From Escherichia phage KIT06, in sequence record OQ349392.1: DNA of 64,000 bases. One strand, 5' to 3'. The position numbers were made by a program, and so were the translations under genes. Below, one piece after another: positions 3,407 through 58,516 of this stretch (positions within the stretch are counted from its first letter, which is position 1; the number at the start of each line of letters is the position of its first letter). The notes under the pieces are model-generated. The model was not told the DNA's origin. It was given only the letters and a program-made list of their open reading frames with translations, and did not search any database.

Positions 3407-3479
3407 TGGGAATTAGCCAAGTTGGTAAGGCATAGCACTTTGACTGCTAGATGCAAAGGTTCGAGTCCTTTATTCCCAG
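3407..3479 (+). tRNA. tRNA-Gln (anticodon TTG)
   Basis: Cloverleaf folded by hand: acceptor TGGGAAT/ATTCCCA, anticodon stem TAGCA/TGCTA, loop CTTTGAC, T-loop GGTTCGAGTCC. Confidence 0.85.
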
Positions 3480-3480
3480 C

Positions 3481-3567
3481 GCGAGAATGGTCAAATTGGT
3501 AAAGGCACAGCACTTAAAATGCTGCGGAATGATTTCCTTGTGGGTTCGAGTCCCACTTCTCGCACCA
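3481..3567 (+). tRNA. tRNA-Leu (anticodon TAA)
   Basis: Acceptor GCGAGAA/TTCTCGC, loop CTTAAAA, long variable arm, encoded CCA. Confidence 0.85.
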
Positions 3568-3572
3568 AATTT

Positions 3573-3647
<75 letters not shown>

Positions 3648-3657
3648 ATTTAATTTA

Positions 3658-3731
3658 CTCCGTGTAGCTCAGTTTGGTAGAGCGTCTGCTTTGGGAGCAG
3701 AATGTCGCAGGTTCAAATCCTGCCGCGGAGA
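3658..3731 (+). tRNA. tRNA-Pro (anticodon TGG)
   Basis: Acceptor CTCCGTG/CGCGGAG, loop TTTGGGA, T-loop GGTTCAAATCC; no encoded CCA. Confidence 0.8.
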
Positions 3732-3733
3732 CT

Positions 3734-3823
3734 GGAGGCGTGGCAGAGTGGTTTAATGCACCGGTCTTGAAAACCGGCAGTCGCTCCGGCGACTCATAGG
3801 TTCAAATCCTATCGCCTCCGCCA
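3734..3823 (+). tRNA. tRNA-Ser (anticodon TGA)
   Basis: Acceptor GGAGGCG/CGCCTCC, loop CTTGAAA, long variable arm, encoded CCA. Confidence 0.85.
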
Positions 3824-3828
3824 GTTTT

Positions 3829-3904
3829 GCTGATTTAGCTCAGTAGGTAGAGCAACTCACTTGTAATGAGAAGGTCGGCGGTTCGATTCCGTCAATCAGC
3901 ACCA
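3829..3904 (+). tRNA. tRNA-Thr (anticodon TGT)
   Basis: Acceptor GCTGATT/AATCAGC, loop CTTGTAA, encoded CCA. Confidence 0.85.
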
Positions 3905-3905
3905 A

Positions 3906-3980
3906 GGCCCTGTAGCTGGAAGGTTCAAGCAAGCGACTCATAATCGCCAGATGGTGGTTCAATTCCACCCAGGGCCACCA
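3906..3980 (+). tRNA. tRNA with CAT anticodon (Ile via lysidine as in T4, or Met)
   Basis: Acceptor GGCCCTG/CAGGGCC, loop CTCATAA, encoded CCA; occupies the tRNA-Ile position of the T4 array. Confidence 0.75.
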
Positions 3981-3989
3981 AATTAATTT

Positions 3990-4076
3990 GGGGAGTTATC
4001 CCGTAGAGGTAGCGGTGTGGACTGTAAATCCATTGTCATTGCGACTCGGGTGGTTCGACTCCATCACTCCCCACCA
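3990..4076 (+). tRNA. tRNA-Tyr (anticodon GTA)
   Basis: Acceptor GGGGAGT/ACTCCCC, loop CTGTAAA, long variable arm, encoded CCA. Confidence 0.75.
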
Positions 4077-4080
4077 ATTT

Positions 4081-4155
4081 GGATGTGTAGCTCAATGGCA
4101 GAGCGATCGCCTGTTAAGCGATTGGTTATAGGTTCGAATCCTATCACGTCCGCCA
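4081..4155 (+). tRNA. tRNA-Asn (anticodon GTT)
   Basis: Acceptor GGATGTG/CACGTCC (one G-U), anticodon stem ATCGC/GCGAT, loop CTGTTAA, encoded CCA. Confidence 0.75.
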
Positions 4156-4159
4156 AATC

Positions 4160-4235
4160 CGAGGCATAGCTCAGAAGGAAGAGCAAGGACCTTCTAAGTC
4201 CTAGGTCGTAGGTTCGATCCCTATTGCCTCGACCA
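4160..4235 (+). tRNA. tRNA-Arg (anticodon TCT)
   Basis: Acceptor CGAGGCA/TGCCTCG, loop CTTCTAA, T-loop TTCGATC, encoded CCA. Confidence 0.8.
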
Positions 4236-4604: not shown

Positions 4605-4915
4605 AACCGGGTCGCTACCGGTAAGTCGTCGGACTGATGTTCCCTGGGTAAGGACTGGCATTAACAAATCTTTACGATCTGTTAATGTCCCCTTACATCA
4701 CAGCAGAAACGGCGCACCGAATTATCGATTCGAGGAAATATCTTTGCCGTAAGCCGAGTAGCGTTTTTGACGGAACGTTCGGATATGGTCGAGATATGGC
4801 CTTTTAAAAATATTGAGTAGCGTCAACTACTCAATAACCGGGTTCGAATCCCGGCGTTTCGTACAAACACTTGCCTTAGCAGGTGGAACCCCGACAAGGT
4901 TGCCGCAAGGCTTAG
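4605..4915 (+). ncRNA. structured non-coding region, probably stable RNA species (T4 rnaC/rnaD-like)
   Basis: ~310 bp without ORF, tRNA-like T-arm CCGGGTTCGAATCCCGG at ~4838-4854, ends at a strong terminator; T4 has two stable RNAs beside its tRNA cluster. Confidence 0.4.
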
Positions 4916-4941
4916 CCCCGACCGAAAGGTCGGGGCTTTTT
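4916..4941 (+). terminator. rho-independent terminator (GAAA tetraloop hairpin plus T-run)
   Basis: CCCCGACC-GAAA-GGTCGGGG followed by CTTTTT. Confidence 0.75.
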
Positions 4942-8583: not shown

Positions 8584-9114
<531 letters not shown>

Positions 9115-17405: not shown

Positions 17406-17936
17406 ATGAAACGATTAGTACTAGAAGTTAGTTCACTTTTTGGTGAATTGGCTATAGAAAAAGTAAATAATATGTATCGTTTGACGCAAGAAGACGATAT
17501 GCTGTATTTTACACCTAGTGAAATTATTCATTTAACCCAAATTGAAAAACCTTATACTGATAAAATTGTAAGCATTAATGATGAGCATAAAATTCATTTC
17601 TATTCTTTATGCCCAGGATTTAACATTGAAAGCGAGTCAATATGCTTATCAATTAATAATTGGGATAATTTTATAACTAAAATTAAATATTTTTATTATT
17701 CTAACGAAAGAAAACATGGTTTAAAATGGTTTAAAAATTGCAATGCTATTATTACTAACGCTTGTAATCAAAATTATGAAACTGTTTTAAATGTATCAAA
17801 GTGTTACGAAGAAGGAGATGTCTTAACTATTCGTCAATCGGTAAATGATGTTAATGTTGTTGTATTAAACAAAGAAGAAGCTGTTTTATTAAAGACTTAT
17901 CTTGATTCTGTCATTCCAACTATGATTTCAAAGTGA
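17406..17936 (+). CDS. hypothetical protein (paralogue A of a tandem pair)
   Basis: ATG 17406 after AAAAAGGA; C-terminal motif KTYLDSVIPTM shared with next gene. Confidence 0.5.
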   Translation: MKRLVLEVSSLFGELAIEKVNNMYRLTQEDDMLYFTPSEIIHLTQIEKPYTDKIVSINDEHKIHFYSLCPGFNIESESICLSINNWDNFITKIKYFYYSNERKHGLKWFKNCNAIITNACNQNYETVLNVSKCYEEGDVLTIRQSVNDVNVVVLNKEEAVLLKTYLDSVIPTMISK

Positions 17937-28454: not shown

Positions 28455-28594
28455 AACCTTGGTGGGCGGCTAGATGGGAAACTGTAGAGCCAGAGCCGGA
28501 AGAACCGGTTTACACTGATGAAGAAACAGTATATAATGAACCTACGATAAATGACTTAATTGATATGGAGATGGGACATGATTACAGTAGATAA
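28439..28594 (+). CDS. hypothetical small acidic protein (51 aa)
   Basis: Not in the track; overlaps both neighbours. Confidence 0.3.
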   Translation: MDYAIKPWWAARWETVEPEPEEPVYTDEETVYNEPTINDLIDMEMGHDYSR

Positions 28595-29024
28595 GTGGTT
28601 TAGAATTAATCGTGCTGATACAGGGCTGTGTAATTATTGGCCGGAACTTAGTGCAGGTACTGTCTTTAAAGTTCGTGAACTTACAAAAGAATGCGAAGAT
28701 GATATAGAACCTGATACTGGAATTATTGAAATTGAACTTTCTGATGGAAAGATTATTAACATCTACGATAAGCCAATTACGTATTGGTGCTTATGGAATA
28801 CTGAATCAGTAGAAAATGGCGAAATTGAAGAGGTCGTAGAACGAGTTGATCAAGCTATTCATAAACCTAAAGCCGCTTTTCAAGGTGAACGTATTTCATA
28901 TGCATTAGCTAAATTAGCTGCGCAAGAAAACAACGATGGCTATGAAGGAAATTTGATGCAAGCTGCGGCAGAATATATTGAATGGCTTGAAACTCAAATT
29001 TCTTTTTCTGACCGAGCATTTTAA
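28578..29024 (+). CDS. hypothetical protein
   Basis: ATG 28578 (MITVDKW...); alternative ATG 28560. Confidence 0.45.
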   Translation: MITVDKWFRINRADTGLCNYWPELSAGTVFKVRELTKECEDDIEPDTGIIEIELSDGKIINIYDKPITYWCLWNTESVENGEIEEVVERVDQAIHKPKAAFQGERISYALAKLAAQENNDGYEGNLMQAAAEYIEWLETQISFSDRAF

Positions 29025-29042
29025 TACTTGAAAATAATAAAT

Positions 29043-29067
29043 ACCCTTATCTATTCAAGGTAAGGGT
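29043..29067 (+). promoter_or_regulatory. hairpin sequestering the gene 49 ribosome-binding site
   Basis: ACCCTTA-11 nt loop-TAAGGGT then TTTTATT; the 3' stem contains AAGGG 8 nt before ATG 29074. Confidence 0.5.
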
Positions 29068-29073
29068 TTTATT

Positions 29074-29547
29074 ATGTTATTGACTGGCAAATTATACAAA
29101 GAAGAAAAACAAAAATTTTATGATGCACAAAACGGTAAATGCTTAATTTGCCAACGAGAACTAAATCCTGATGTTCAAGCTAATCACCTTGACCATGACC
29201 ATGAATTAAATGGACCAAAAGCAGGAAAGGTACGTGGGTTGCTATGTAATCTCTGTAATGCTGCAGAAGGTCAAATGAAGCATAAATTCAATCGTTCTGG
29301 CTTAAAGGGACAAGGTGTTGATTATCTTGAATGGCTAGAAAATTTACTTACTTATTTAAAATCCGATTACACCCAAAATAATATTCACCCTAACTTCGTT
29401 GGAGATAAATCAAAGGAATTTTCTCGTTTAGGAAAAGAGGAAATGATGGCTGAGATGCTTCAAAGAGGATTTGAATATAATGAATCTGACACTAAAACAC
29501 AATTAATAGCTTCATTTAAGAAGCAGCTTAGAAAGAGTTTAAAATGA
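29074..29547 (+). CDS. 49: endonuclease VII (Holliday-junction resolvase)
   Basis: 157 aa MLLTGKLYKEEKQKFYDAQNGKCLICQRELNPDVQANHLDHDHELNGPKAGKVRGLLCNLCN... as recalled for T4 gp49. Confidence 0.95.
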   Translation: MLLTGKLYKEEKQKFYDAQNGKCLICQRELNPDVQANHLDHDHELNGPKAGKVRGLLCNLCNAAEGQMKHKFNRSGLKGQGVDYLEWLENLLTYLKSDYTQNNIHPNFVGDKSKEFSRLGKEEMMAEMLQRGFEYNESDTKTQLIASFKKQLRKSLK

Positions 29548-31361
29548 CAATTGAAAAAGAAATTGAAGGATTGATTCATAAAACTAATAAAGACCTTTTA
29601 AACGAGAATGCTAATAAAGATTCTCGTGTTTTTCCAACTCAACGGGACCTTATGGCTGGTATTGTGTCTAAACACATTGCCAAAAATATGGTCCCGTCTT
29701 TTATTATGAAAGCGCATGAAAGCGGAATTATTCATTTCCATGATATTGATTATTCCCCTGCTCTTCCATTTACTAATTGCTGTTTAGTAGATTTAAAAGG
29801 AATGCTTGAGAACGGATTTAAGCTCGGTAATGCACAGATTGAAACTCCTAAATCAATCGGTGTTGCTACTGCAATTATGGCACAAATTACTGCACAGGTT
29901 GCTTCCCATCAATATGGTGGAACGACTTTTGCGAATGTAGATAAAGTACTTTCTCCTTATGTTAAACGCACCTATGCAAAACATATTGAGGACGCAGAAA
30001 AATGGCAAATCGCTGATGCGTTGAATTATGCCCAATCTAAAACAGAAAAAGATGTATACGATGCATTCCAAGCTTATGAATACGAAGTAAATACTCTCTT
30101 TAGTTCAAACGGACAAACGCCTTTTGTAACAATTACATTTGGTACGGGAACTGACTGGACTGAACGAATGATTCAGAAAGCAATTCTGAAAAATCGTATT
30201 AAAGGCCTTGGTCGCGACGGGATAACTCCTATTTTCCCTAAACTTGTTATGTTCGTTGAAGAAGGTGTTAATCTTTATAAAGACGATCCGAACTATGATA
30301 TTAAGCAGCTTGCTCTAGAATGTGCAAGTAAAAGAATGTATCCTGACATCATTTCGGCTAAGAACAATAAAGCTATCACCGGTTCATCTATTCCTGTTTC
30401 TCCAATGGGTTGTCGTAGTTTCTTGGGTGTATGGAAAGATTCGACTGGTAATGAAATTCTTGATGGACGTAATAATCTTGGTGTTGTAACACTGAATCTT
30501 CCTCGCATTGCACTAGATTCTTATATTGGAACACAGTTCAATGAACAGAAATTTGCCGAATTGTTCAATGAGAGAATGGATTTATGTTTTGAAGCATTGA
30601 TGTGTAGAATTAGTTCATTAAAAGGAGTTAAAGCTACTGTTGCTCCTATTCTTTACCAAGAAGGTGCATTCGGGGTTCGTCTTAAACCTGATGACGATAT
30701 AATTGAGTTATTTAAAAACGGTAGAAGTTCAGTGTCTTTGGGATACATTGGTATTCACGAATTGAATATTCTTGTCGGTCGTGATATTGGACAAGAAATT
30801 TTAACTAAAATGAATGCTCATCTTAAGCAGTGGACTGAAAGAACTGGTTTTGCTTTTAGTTTGTATTCGACACCTGCTGAAAACCTGTGCTATCGCTTCT
30901 GTAAACTTGATACCGAAAAATATGGAAGTGTAAAAGATGTTACCGATAAAGGCTGGTACACTAACAGTTTCCACGTTTCAGTAGAAGAAAATATCACTCC
31001 GTTTGAAAAGATTTCTCGTGAAGCACCATATCATTTCATTGCGACAGGTGGTCACATTTCTTATGTTGAACTTCCTGATATGAAAAATAACCTAAAAGGT
31101 CTTGAGGCTGTATGGGATTATGCTGCGCAACATTTAGATTATTTTGGCGTTAACATGCCAGTAGATAAATGTTTTACGTGTGGAAGTACCCATGAAATGA
31201 CTCCTACTGAAAACGGATTTGTTTGTTCTATTTGTGGAGAAACTGATCCTAAAAAGATGAACACAATAAGAAGAACATGCGGATATCTTGGAACTCCTAG
31301 CGTTGTTCCATGGAATTTAGGTAAAATGAAAGAAATGGTAAAACGAGTAAAACATGCATAG
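29544..31361 (+). CDS. nrdD: anaerobic ribonucleoside-triphosphate reductase NrdD
   Basis: 605-aa uninterrupted ORF with C-terminal glycyl-radical motif RRTCGYLG and Cys cluster. Confidence 0.97.
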   Translation: MTIEKEIEGLIHKTNKDLLNENANKDSRVFPTQRDLMAGIVSKHIAKNMVPSFIMKAHESGIIHFHDIDYSPALPFTNCCLVDLKGMLENGFKLGNAQIETPKSIGVATAIMAQITAQVASHQYGGTTFANVDKVLSPYVKRTYAKHIEDAEKWQIADALNYAQSKTEKDVYDAFQAYEYEVNTLFSSNGQTPFVTITFGTGTDWTERMIQKAILKNRIKGLGRDGITPIFPKLVMFVEEGVNLYKDDPNYDIKQLALECASKRMYPDIISAKNNKAITGSSIPVSPMGCRSFLGVWKDSTGNEILDGRNNLGVVTLNLPRIALDSYIGTQFNEQKFAELFNERMDLCFEALMCRISSLKGVKATVAPILYQEGAFGVRLKPDDDIIELFKNGRSSVSLGYIGIHELNILVGRDIGQEILTKMNAHLKQWTERTGFAFSLYSTPAENLCYRFCKLDTEKYGSVKDVTDKGWYTNSFHVSVEENITPFEKISREAPYHFIATGGHISYVELPDMKNNLKGLEAVWDYAAQHLDYFGVNMPVDKCFTCGSTHEMTPTENGFVCSICGETDPKKMNTIRRTCGYLGTPSVVPWNLGKMKEMVKRVKHA

Positions 31362-32184
31362 GTATTATATAATTTATAAAATAACAAATATAATTAATTC
31401 AAAGGAATATATCGGTGCGCATAGCACCGATAACATAAATGACGGTTATATGGGGTCAGGAACATTGATTCGTGCCGCTTTATTAAAATATGGTAGAAAA
31501 AATTTTAATAAAGAAATTTTACATGTTTTTGATAATGAAAAACAAATGTATGATAAAGAAGCTGAACTCGTAACCGAAGAGTATTGTCTAAAAGAAAATA
31601 CATATAATATTAAACCTGGTGGAAAAGGTGGAACTGCCTATGAACAGACACTTGAACATCGCCGCAAAAATAGTTTAGCAAATAAAGGTAAAAAGAGAAC
31701 AGAAGAAACTAAAATAGCTATTTCACGTGCTTTAAAGAAATATAAACGTACGCCAGAGCATCAAGCAAATTTAAATAAAGCCGTAAGCATAGCTATGAAG
31801 CGAAAAGATGTTAGAAGTAAATTAGCTGGAGAGCGGTCTGAGAAAGATAAATTATCTATATCAAACGGTGTTAAAAAATATTACAATTCTTTGAGTGAAG
31901 AAGAACGCGAACTTCATCGCAAGCGAATTATTGAAGGTAAAAAGAATTCTCCCATGTCATTGGAATCTAGACAAAAGCTTTCAAAAGCTTTAAAAGGACT
32001 TCAAGTTGGTTCAAAAAATCCAATGTATGGAAAAATTTCTCCAACTAGCAAAACCGTTTCAGTTGACGGTATTAAATATGATTCAATTAAAAAGTGCTCA
32101 AATGCCATAAAAGTTTCTAGACATCTTATACTAAAACGCTGTAATTCTACTGATGAAGCTTGGAAAAATTGGATATTATTATGA
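31354..32184 (+). CDS. free-standing GIY-YIG homing endonuclease (Seg-like)
   Basis: N-terminal YIIYKITN...EYIGAHS GIY-YIG module; basic C-terminal region with NUMOD3-like GSKNPMYGK; overlaps nrdD stop and nrdG start. Confidence 0.8.
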   Translation: MHRYYIIYKITNIINSKEYIGAHSTDNINDGYMGSGTLIRAALLKYGRKNFNKEILHVFDNEKQMYDKEAELVTEEYCLKENTYNIKPGGKGGTAYEQTLEHRRKNSLANKGKKRTEETKIAISRALKKYKRTPEHQANLNKAVSIAMKRKDVRSKLAGERSEKDKLSISNGVKKYYNSLSEEERELHRKRIIEGKKNSPMSLESRQKLSKALKGLQVGSKNPMYGKISPTSKTVSVDGIKYDSIKKCSNAIKVSRHLILKRCNSTDEAWKNWILL

Positions 32185-58036: not shown

Positions 58037-58242
58037 AATTTGATTTTTATGCATGGCAAAAAGCCGGGAGACCGGCTAGTCGAGCATTTGGTTCTGATGG
58101 ATATAATATTAGAGCCCATTGGAAATTTAATGCTCCAGAAGATTATTCTCCGGTAATTATTAACGGCGATGTTGTTATATTAACTAAAATCGGGTATTTT
58201 AACGTTCCGCGAGAATTTATTATAAATAATCATGTAATTTAA
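58033..58242 (+). CDS. hypothetical small protein
   Basis: 69 aa, ATGA overlap. Confidence 0.45.
   Translation: MKFDFYAWQKAGRPASRAFGSDGYNIRAHWKFNAPEDYSPVIINGDVVILTKIGYFNVPREFIINNHVI
58231..58238 (+). promoter_or_regulatory. T4 late promoter (TATAAATA)
   Basis: Exact TATAAATA 21 bp before soc ATG. Confidence 0.65.
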
Positions 58243-58258
58243 ATAAAAGGAGAATTAC

Positions 58259-58516
58259 ATGGCTAGTACTCGCGGTTATGTTAATATCAAAACATTTGAC
58301 CAAGCAGTTGATGGTGGTACAATTCAGGGTAAAGAAATTTCTGTAGCTTTCCCTCTTTATTCTGATGTTCACAAAATTTCTGGTGCTCATTATCAGACAT
58401 TCCCTTCTGAAAAAGCAGCATATTCTACAGTATATGAAGAAAATCAGCGTACTGAATGGATCACTGCTAATGAAGGTCTTTGGACTGTTACACCTACACC
58501 AGGTGTAGGTGGTTAA
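58259..58516 (+). CDS. soc: small outer capsid protein Soc
   Basis: 85 aa MASTRGYVNIKTFDQ...ISVAFPLYSDVHKISGAHYQTFPSEKAAYSTVYEENQRTEW... Confidence 0.9.
   Translation: MASTRGYVNIKTFDQAVDGGTIQGKEISVAFPLYSDVHKISGAHYQTFPSEKAAYSTVYEENQRTEWITANEGLWTVTPTPGVGG

Follow-up and report, generated by a model that had tools for sequence, protein, structure and literature searches.

A late-promoter box and hairpin before gene 49 of Escherichia phage KIT06 resemble the T4 translational switch and are conserved by compensatory change in distant T4-like phages

In Escherichia phage KIT06 (OQ349392.1) the start codon of gene 49, which encodes recombination endonuclease VII, is preceded within a few nucleotides by an RNA hairpin, and the question is whether this hairpin controls translation of the gene behind it, ends transcription of the gene before it, or does something else. 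The initial annotation had proposed that it buries the ribosome-binding site in transcripts arriving from upstream and leaves it free in transcripts that start inside the hairpin, and had stated that control of this kind is described for T4 gene 49. This precedent is real, as two reviews list it: section 29 of PMC3014915 names e, soc, 49 and I-TevI as T4 genes in which the Shine-Dalgarno (SD) sequence and/or the AUG is sequestered in an RNA helix, and section 12 of PMC2988022, citing Barth et al. 1988, places T4 gene 49 among the genes with a sequestered start region (the text by Edgell and colleagues prints '39', but the reference given is the gene 49 paper). Here we analysed the locus within a 64,000-nucleotide stretch of the phage DNA, referred to below as the window, and compared it with its counterparts in related phages.

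The identity of the locus is clear. The window belongs to a Tequatrovirus, and over the 1 kb around the hairpin it shares 95–99% identity with hundreds of records of T4-like phages and 95.8% with T4. The open reading frame at 29074–29547 (+ strand, 157 aa) carries the Pfam domains Endonuclease_7 (PF02945, 5e-22) and T4 endonuclease VII dimerisation (PF09124, 1.5e-33), and its product matches T4 gp49 at 157 of 157 residues. With both domains and the pin–49–nrdD context shared with T4, the gene is the orthologue of T4 gene 49. On its upstream side lies pin (PinA peptidase inhibitor, 28578–29024, +), identified by Pfam and by comparison with T4, whose ATG at 28578 matches the T4 start (the first start from the ORF finder is a TTG at 28560) and which read-through RNA would cross before reaching the hairpin. 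On its downstream side lies nrdD (29544–31361, +, 605 aa, uninterrupted), identified by Pfam and its reading frame. Because the nrdD start overlaps the gene 49 stop, nrdD needs transcription that continues through or past the hairpin. The genes nrdC through nrdD all have the same orientation, and a sigma-70-type promoter-like site upstream of pin (TTTACA-17-TATAAT, 11/12, 28509–28537, +), found by a consensus scan and conserved in T4, could from its sequence be a source of early read-through RNA.

Read directly from the + strand, positions 29043–29067 are ACCCTTATCTATTCAAGGTAAGGGT, followed by TTTATT and then by the ATG at 29074. The segment ACCCTTA (29043–29049) is complementary to TAAGGGT (29061–29067), and the 11 nt TCTATTCAAGG lie between them, so the 7-bp arms originally described are indeed perfect. 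The 11-nt loop is not retained in the ViennaRNA fold, which adds the pairs U29050.G29060, C29051-G29059 and U29052-A29058 to give a 10-bp stem closed by the 5-nt loop AUUCA (29053–29057, +; AUUUA in T4). In this fold the 5′ arm is ACCCUUAUCU (29043–29052, +), defined by the fold, the inverted repeat and the covariation described below and expected only in transcripts that start upstream, and the 3′ arm is AGGUAAGGGU (29058–29067, +), defined by the fold and by its duplex with the anti-SD sequence. The AAGGG Shine-Dalgarno sequence sits within the 3′ arm at 29062–29066, and 6 nt (29068–29073) separate the stem from the start codon, both as initially reported. The folding-energy calculation suggested at that stage bears the stem out, with a ΔG of −12.4 kcal/mol, a z-score of −5.0 and 0/200 dinucleotide shuffles folding equally well, while the minus strand folds at only −8.7 kcal/mol. 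Below the stem the helix is extended by eight A-U pairs between an A/U-rich 5′ strand (29034–29041, +), which overlaps the promoter box, and the U-rich 3′ strand UUUAUUAU (29068–29075, +), with U29042 bulged. The same arms are recovered by a search for repeats, and the extension takes in the A and the U of the gene 49 AUG. The T-rich TTTATT that had been described as a tail is thus present, but a strand pairing with the box is a better description of it than the tail of a terminator. The 51 nt from 29030 to 29080 fold at −18.1 kcal/mol, and the 42 nt from 29034 to 29075 at −17.0 kcal/mol, which places it in the top 0.12% of all 42-nt segments when both strands of the 64-kb window are considered (mean −4.15, sd 2.9). 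At the Rfam gathering score the whole window returned only 10 tRNAs, and no family covers the hairpin.

If the hairpin is to act as a switch, a late promoter must be placed such that late RNA lacks its 5′ strand. The putative late-promoter box AATAAATA (29036–29043, +) lies directly against that strand, its final A (29043) being the first paired base of the hairpin, so that RNA started from it would leave much of the 5′ strand behind. The box matches the T4 late consensus TATAAATA at seven of eight positions, and the A at −13 is the commonest T4 late-promoter variant, found in 9 of the 50 T4 sites listed in PMC2988020. As the bare motif TAAATA is common in this A+T-rich DNA, a promoter role for AATAAATA is predicted from its conservation and from the T4 precedent. 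In T4 the 8-bp TATAAATA box spans −13 to −6 according to PMC1524935, which puts the predicted late +1 at A29049 (+), the seventh base of the 5′ arm, and this position is an A in 25 of 25 sequences (column 12 of alignment A3, see below). Supplementary files of a T4 dRNA-seq preprint, the TSS table aside, list no start at the corresponding T4 positions (NC_000866.4 46876–46881). RNA starting at 29049 retains only AUCU of the 5′ arm, leaving four weak pairs. The perfect consensus TATAAATA occurs 6 times in the whole window, where 11.1 occurrences would be expected from shuffling (97 of 100 shuffles contain at least 6). This is a mild depletion, and three of the six sites are the promoters of genes e and soc.

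The predicted consequences for the ribosome-binding site were determined by modelling a read-through RNA (28949–29110) and a late RNA starting at 29049. In the read-through RNA each base of the Shine-Dalgarno region (29058–29066) is predicted to be unpaired only 0–5% of the time, compared with a mean of 55% in the late RNA (29057–29066), and A29074 and U29075 of the AUG are predicted to be unpaired 3–7% of the time in the read-through RNA and 40–64% in the late RNA. Opening 29057–29079 would cost 19.1 kcal/mol in the read-through RNA and 3.5 kcal/mol in the late RNA. The best duplex with the anti-SD sequence (about 29057–29067, with UAAGGG) is worth only about −5 to −6.5 kcal/mol (−5.0 for UAAGGG), and cannot pay the opening cost of the read-through RNA. 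The late leader, in turn, folds at −2.0 kcal/mol with a z-score of +1.9, i.e. it is less structured than its own shuffles. The modelling therefore agrees with the originally proposed buried ribosome-binding site, and predicts sequestration of the T4 type in RNA that starts upstream.

All the sequence elements required for the original interpretation are present, and they support it: the hairpin and box very probably constitute the gene 49 late-promoter/hairpin translational switch of T4. In such a switch, early and middle transcripts would start upstream (at the 28509–28537 site or, as in T4, at middle promoters before nrdC) and run through pin. Within this read-through RNA 29043–29052 would pair with 29058–29067 and 29034–29041 with 29068–29075, burying the weak Shine-Dalgarno sequence (UAAGGG) together with the A and U of the start codon, and as a result 30S subunits should bind poorly and little endonuclease VII should be made. 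At late times RNA polymerase with gp55 and gp33 would recognise AATAAATA and start at about A29049, and since this RNA would lack the first six bases of the 5′ arm its leader should be nearly unstructured and gene 49 translated. The sequence elements, their folding energies, the covariation and the near-identity to T4 are observed directly; where late RNA starts in this phage, how much read-through occurs and how strongly translation responds are what we infer from them. Endonuclease VII cuts branched DNA, and intermediates of replication and recombination could plausibly be spared if the enzyme were not made until packaging. The device itself, in which RNA structure ties translation to the promoter that made the transcript, is known from T4.

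Comparison with T4 leaves little room between the two elements. The T4 sequence across the element is AATAAATACCCTTATCTATTTAAGGTAAGGGTTTATTATG. The orthologous locus has the same order of pin, gene 49 and nrdD with identical gp49, neither the late-promoter box nor either stem arm differs, and the SD and AUG are sequestered alike. The differences are the loop, AUUCA here and AUUUA in T4; the distance from stem to AUG, 6 nt here and 5 in T4 owing to one extra U; the C-terminus of pin just upstream; and the internal GUG of T4 gene 49, which is GUA here. Late 5′ ends were reportedly mapped inside the T4 hairpin by Barth, Powell, Trupin and Mosig (Genetics 1988, 120:329), who are also said to have described a nested pair of products from gene 49. 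The T4 record correspondingly annotates two gene 49 coding sequences, the second and shorter product starting at the internal GUG. This is codon 53 (29230–29232), which reads GTA here and GTG in T4. In most relatives it is GTT, GTA, GTC or ATT, and GTG is found only in T4, one further locus (L004), three Aeh1-like loci and KP15. As the internal GUG is not a start codon in most relatives, the nested protein is, judging from these sequences, probably not a conserved feature of gene 49.

Separately, the pin C-terminus of this phage (...ISFSDRAF, 28990–29030 region, stop at 29022–29024) is unlike that of T4, whose pin stops 5 nt before the box, and matches instead the pin ending of more distant loci (L017, L018, L025 and L028). 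This match points to a mosaic junction immediately before the gene 49 promoter.

The timing of gp49 in infected cells is available for T4 from PMC9697503, which classes the gene 49 transcript as early (Tables S2 and S3). In that data set the LFQ value of END7_BPT4 is zero at 0, 1, 3, 5 and 8 min; at 12 min two of three replicates contain the protein, and at 20 and 30 min every replicate does. This course resembles that of the late proteins gp48 and gp54 and is unlike that of gp33, which is seen from 3–5 min. Since the same study also classes many early-gene proteins as late, NrdD and UvsX among them, the timing of gp49 is consistent with a translational switch but not decisive.

For T4-type phages the mechanism is already known and the present locus adds nothing new to it. 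What is added here is that the switch has been kept by compensatory change across distant T4-like genera, and that the terminator-like tail is specific to one clade. We compared 44 gene 49 loci from viral contigs and those of six named phages, with gp49 identities to the query of 38–100%. The layout of TAAATA box, hairpin, SD in the 3′ arm or loop, and start codon is found in 34 distinct upstream sequences (gp49 44–100%), and in 32 of these the pairing begins at the last A of TAAATA. Across the 34 the hairpin has median values of 10 bp, −11.5 kcal/mol and z = −3.7, and a start 6 nt past the box would leave a median of 4 stem pairs (range 0–6). The TAAATA motif is invariant in all aligned relatives, while the flank upstream of it is not conserved, and the Aeh1-like loci carry at this position CTAAATA, the late-promoter consensus reported for Aeh1 (PMC1524935). 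The stems themselves are diverse, with about 18 kinds of sequence that include CCCTTATCT/AGGTAAGGG, GGTTCATCT/AGGTGAACC, GAGTCAT/ATGACTC, CCTCTATA/TATAGGGG and GTCCTAT/ATAGGGC, and in AS-gz (AAGAGCATA/TATGCTCTT) the AUG itself is inside the stem. The same geometry recurs at gp49 identities of 44–57% in Krischvirus ECD7, Slopekvirus KP15, Tulanevirus AS-gz, Lazarusvirus AM101, Acinetobacter phage 133 and the Aeh1-like phages. By comparison, the lower A/U extension is confined to the T4-type clade among the relatives compared. The hairpin remains next to gene 49 irrespective of the upstream neighbour, be it pin, nrdC or a hypothetical gene.

To quantify the pairing we counted pairs of the named 10-bp helix in a MAFFT alignment of 32 sequences that was not fitted to any structure (A1). 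In this alignment 87% of cells are paired, compared with 38–50% when the partners are slid by 1–3 columns, 56 cells are changed on both sides (5–15 when slid), and the covariation score is 0.397 (at most 0.115 when slid); 0/500 shuffles reached these pairing and covariation values. RNAalifold predicted no structure on A1, because eight distant rows are misaligned, but on the 25 well-aligned sequences (A3) it recovers the stem unaided. Up to four pair types occur per position in A3, pair 8/36 for example being GC in 9, CG in 7, AU in 6 and UA in 3 sequences with none broken. The freely covarying pairs fall at promoter positions −5 to −3 and the invariant columns are the box, the +1 A and the SD, as one would expect where selection acts on the promoter, the start site, the ribosome site and the helix alike. 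The structure is thus maintained by selection through compensatory changes in the relatives. In addition, one U.G pair is conserved (UG in 21 and UA in 4 sequences of A3), and together with the weaker fold of the minus strand this indicates that the structure acts in the sense-strand RNA and not in DNA. No comparable box and hairpin were seen in Vibrio phage PG216 (Schizotequatrovirus, gp49 38%), and conservation may therefore not span the whole family. The switch is not specific to T4, and it probably ranks among the cis-regulatory RNA structures that T4-like phages have conserved most deeply; our literature search found no paper on conservation of the gene 49 hairpin. Conservation of this depth, if true, would speak for strong family-wide selection against endonuclease VII before late times.

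A hairpin followed by a U-rich stretch between two genes could also be mainly an intrinsic (Rho-independent) terminator after pin, its overlap with the gene 49 ribosome-binding site being incidental. The likeness to intrinsic terminators, which share the stem-loop and the U-rich stretch behind it, is genuine: a consensus scan picks out 29043–29067 plus TTTATTATGT as terminator-like (10 pairs, 4 of them G-C, and a 5-nt loop), the homologous hairpin (1517–1539) of phage Lutter (MT682714) has been labelled 'terminator' by automatic annotation, and the T4 middle promoter inside gene 49 that serves nrdD according to PMC2988021 would be useful if some transcripts stop at the hairpin. However, the stem is G+C-poor; nrdD is co-oriented with gene 49, overlaps its stop and has a transcript that is classed early in T4; and most relatives do not preserve a terminator tail. 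This comparison relied on unbroken U-runs and on how far the stem lies from the AUG; a count of T in the 8 nt after the stem was dropped as a test, as gene 49 itself begins AUGUUAUU. A U-run of at least 3 (closing U counted) follows the stem in only 6 of the 34 distinct relatives, all of them in the T4-type clade, so that most relatives keep the hairpin without the run and the U-tract is not conserved along with the stem among the 34. In 21 of the 34 only 0–1 nt separates the end of the stem from the AUG, or the stem overlaps the AUG. Conservation concerns the promoter box, the location of the SD in the 3′ arm and the proximity to the AUG rather than a tail, and it is gene 49, not the gene before it, that the hairpin accompanies. 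For the T4-type clade the composition of the tail is explained by its complementarity to, and pairing with, the A-rich promoter box. Termination as the main role is therefore unlikely, although some termination in the T4-type clade is possible as a second role of the hairpin, and since the switch is conserved by compensatory evolution the automatic terminator annotation is probably wrong or incomplete.

A stable stem-loop at the end of a gene can act as a barrier to 3′ exonucleases, and the hairpin, 19 nt past the pin stop codon, is in the right place to protect the 3′ end of pin mRNA or to serve as an RNase target without any control of gene 49 translation. We regard such a stability or processing element as highly improbable, since it would leave unexplained the invariant late-promoter box abutting the 5′ arm, the constant location of the SD in the 3′ arm or loop and the persistence of the hairpin next to differing upstream genes. 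There is finally the adjacency of an inverted repeat to the gene for a cruciform-cutting enzyme, which could point to a role in DNA, for example as a cruciform substrate of endonuclease VII, if the repeat is not simply due to chance, but none of the analyses favours either reading. Chance is hard to reconcile with 0/200 shuffles folding as well and with the strong covariation. As for a cruciform, arms of 10 bp are short for extrusion, and we rejected this reading on the conserved U.G pair, which in DNA would be mismatched on this strand and on the opposite one, where it becomes A.C, and on the weaker minus-strand fold (−8.7 kcal/mol). Neither chance nor a DNA-level role is given any appreciable weight here.

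The translational switch, by contrast, has counterparts of the same design both in T4 and elsewhere in the window. In T4 gene e, as at gene 49, the early read-through RNA hides the SD and the late promoters lie in the 5′ strand of the helix (PMC3014915), the differences being that gene e has two perfect TATAAATA boxes and that its hairpin has no sequence similarity to that of gene 49. Late RNA without the inhibitory 5′ strand is likewise described in PMC2988022 for soc, I-TevI, I-TevII, I-TevIII, segB and Aeh1 mobE; the sequences of soc and the homing endonuclease genes are unrelated to that of gene 49, and in soc it is mainly the AUG and not the SD that is paired. Two of these genes are present in the window. 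In the gene e region (8586–9114), where the gene encodes a 164-aa lysozyme (Pfam Phage_lysozyme), there are perfect TATAAATA boxes at 8586 and 8599 before the ATG at 8620 and a hairpin of −14 kcal/mol (z = −4.2) that pairs the GGAGG Shine-Dalgarno sequence. The soc region (58221–58516; gene product 85 aa, Pfam Soc 2.7e-45) has TATAAATA at 58221, a second TAAATA at 58240 and an 11-bp hairpin of −8.5 kcal/mol (z = −3.8) covering the AUG at 58259. Genes e and soc thus serve as internal controls and show a design like that of gene 49. Among the 20 TAAATA boxes located 18–57 nt before an ORF of at least 50 aa, the hairpin of gene 49 is the most stable and that of gene e the second most stable.

Several further features were seen in the course of this analysis. 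Within 17464–17936, a y05I-like ORF (145 aa, Pfam T4_y05I_N and T4_y05I_C) is preceded by a TAAATA box at 17464 and a 9-bp hairpin of −8.1 kcal/mol that reaches the AUG, and from its sequence it may be another case of the gene 49-type design. Downstream of nrdD, a free-standing endonuclease ORF (31354–32184, 276 aa) with an N-terminal GIY-YIG-like motif and NUMOD3 begins with an ATG that overlaps the nrdD stop; nrdD is uninterrupted here, whereas T4 nrdD carries the I-TevII intron. Within the first 30 codons of this ORF, at 31410–31432, there is a perfect 9-bp G+C-rich hairpin (AUCGGUGCG-CAUAG-CACCGAU; −15.8 kcal/mol for the region, z = −6.3). Phage Lutter MT682714 (L002) has an extra 273-aa ORF (2016–2837) between gene 49 and nrdD. 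Ten tRNA genes are clustered at 3407–4232 on the + strand, and just downstream of this cluster, at about 4897–4938, lies the most stable 42-nt fold in the window, formed on both strands at −27 and −26 kcal/mol.
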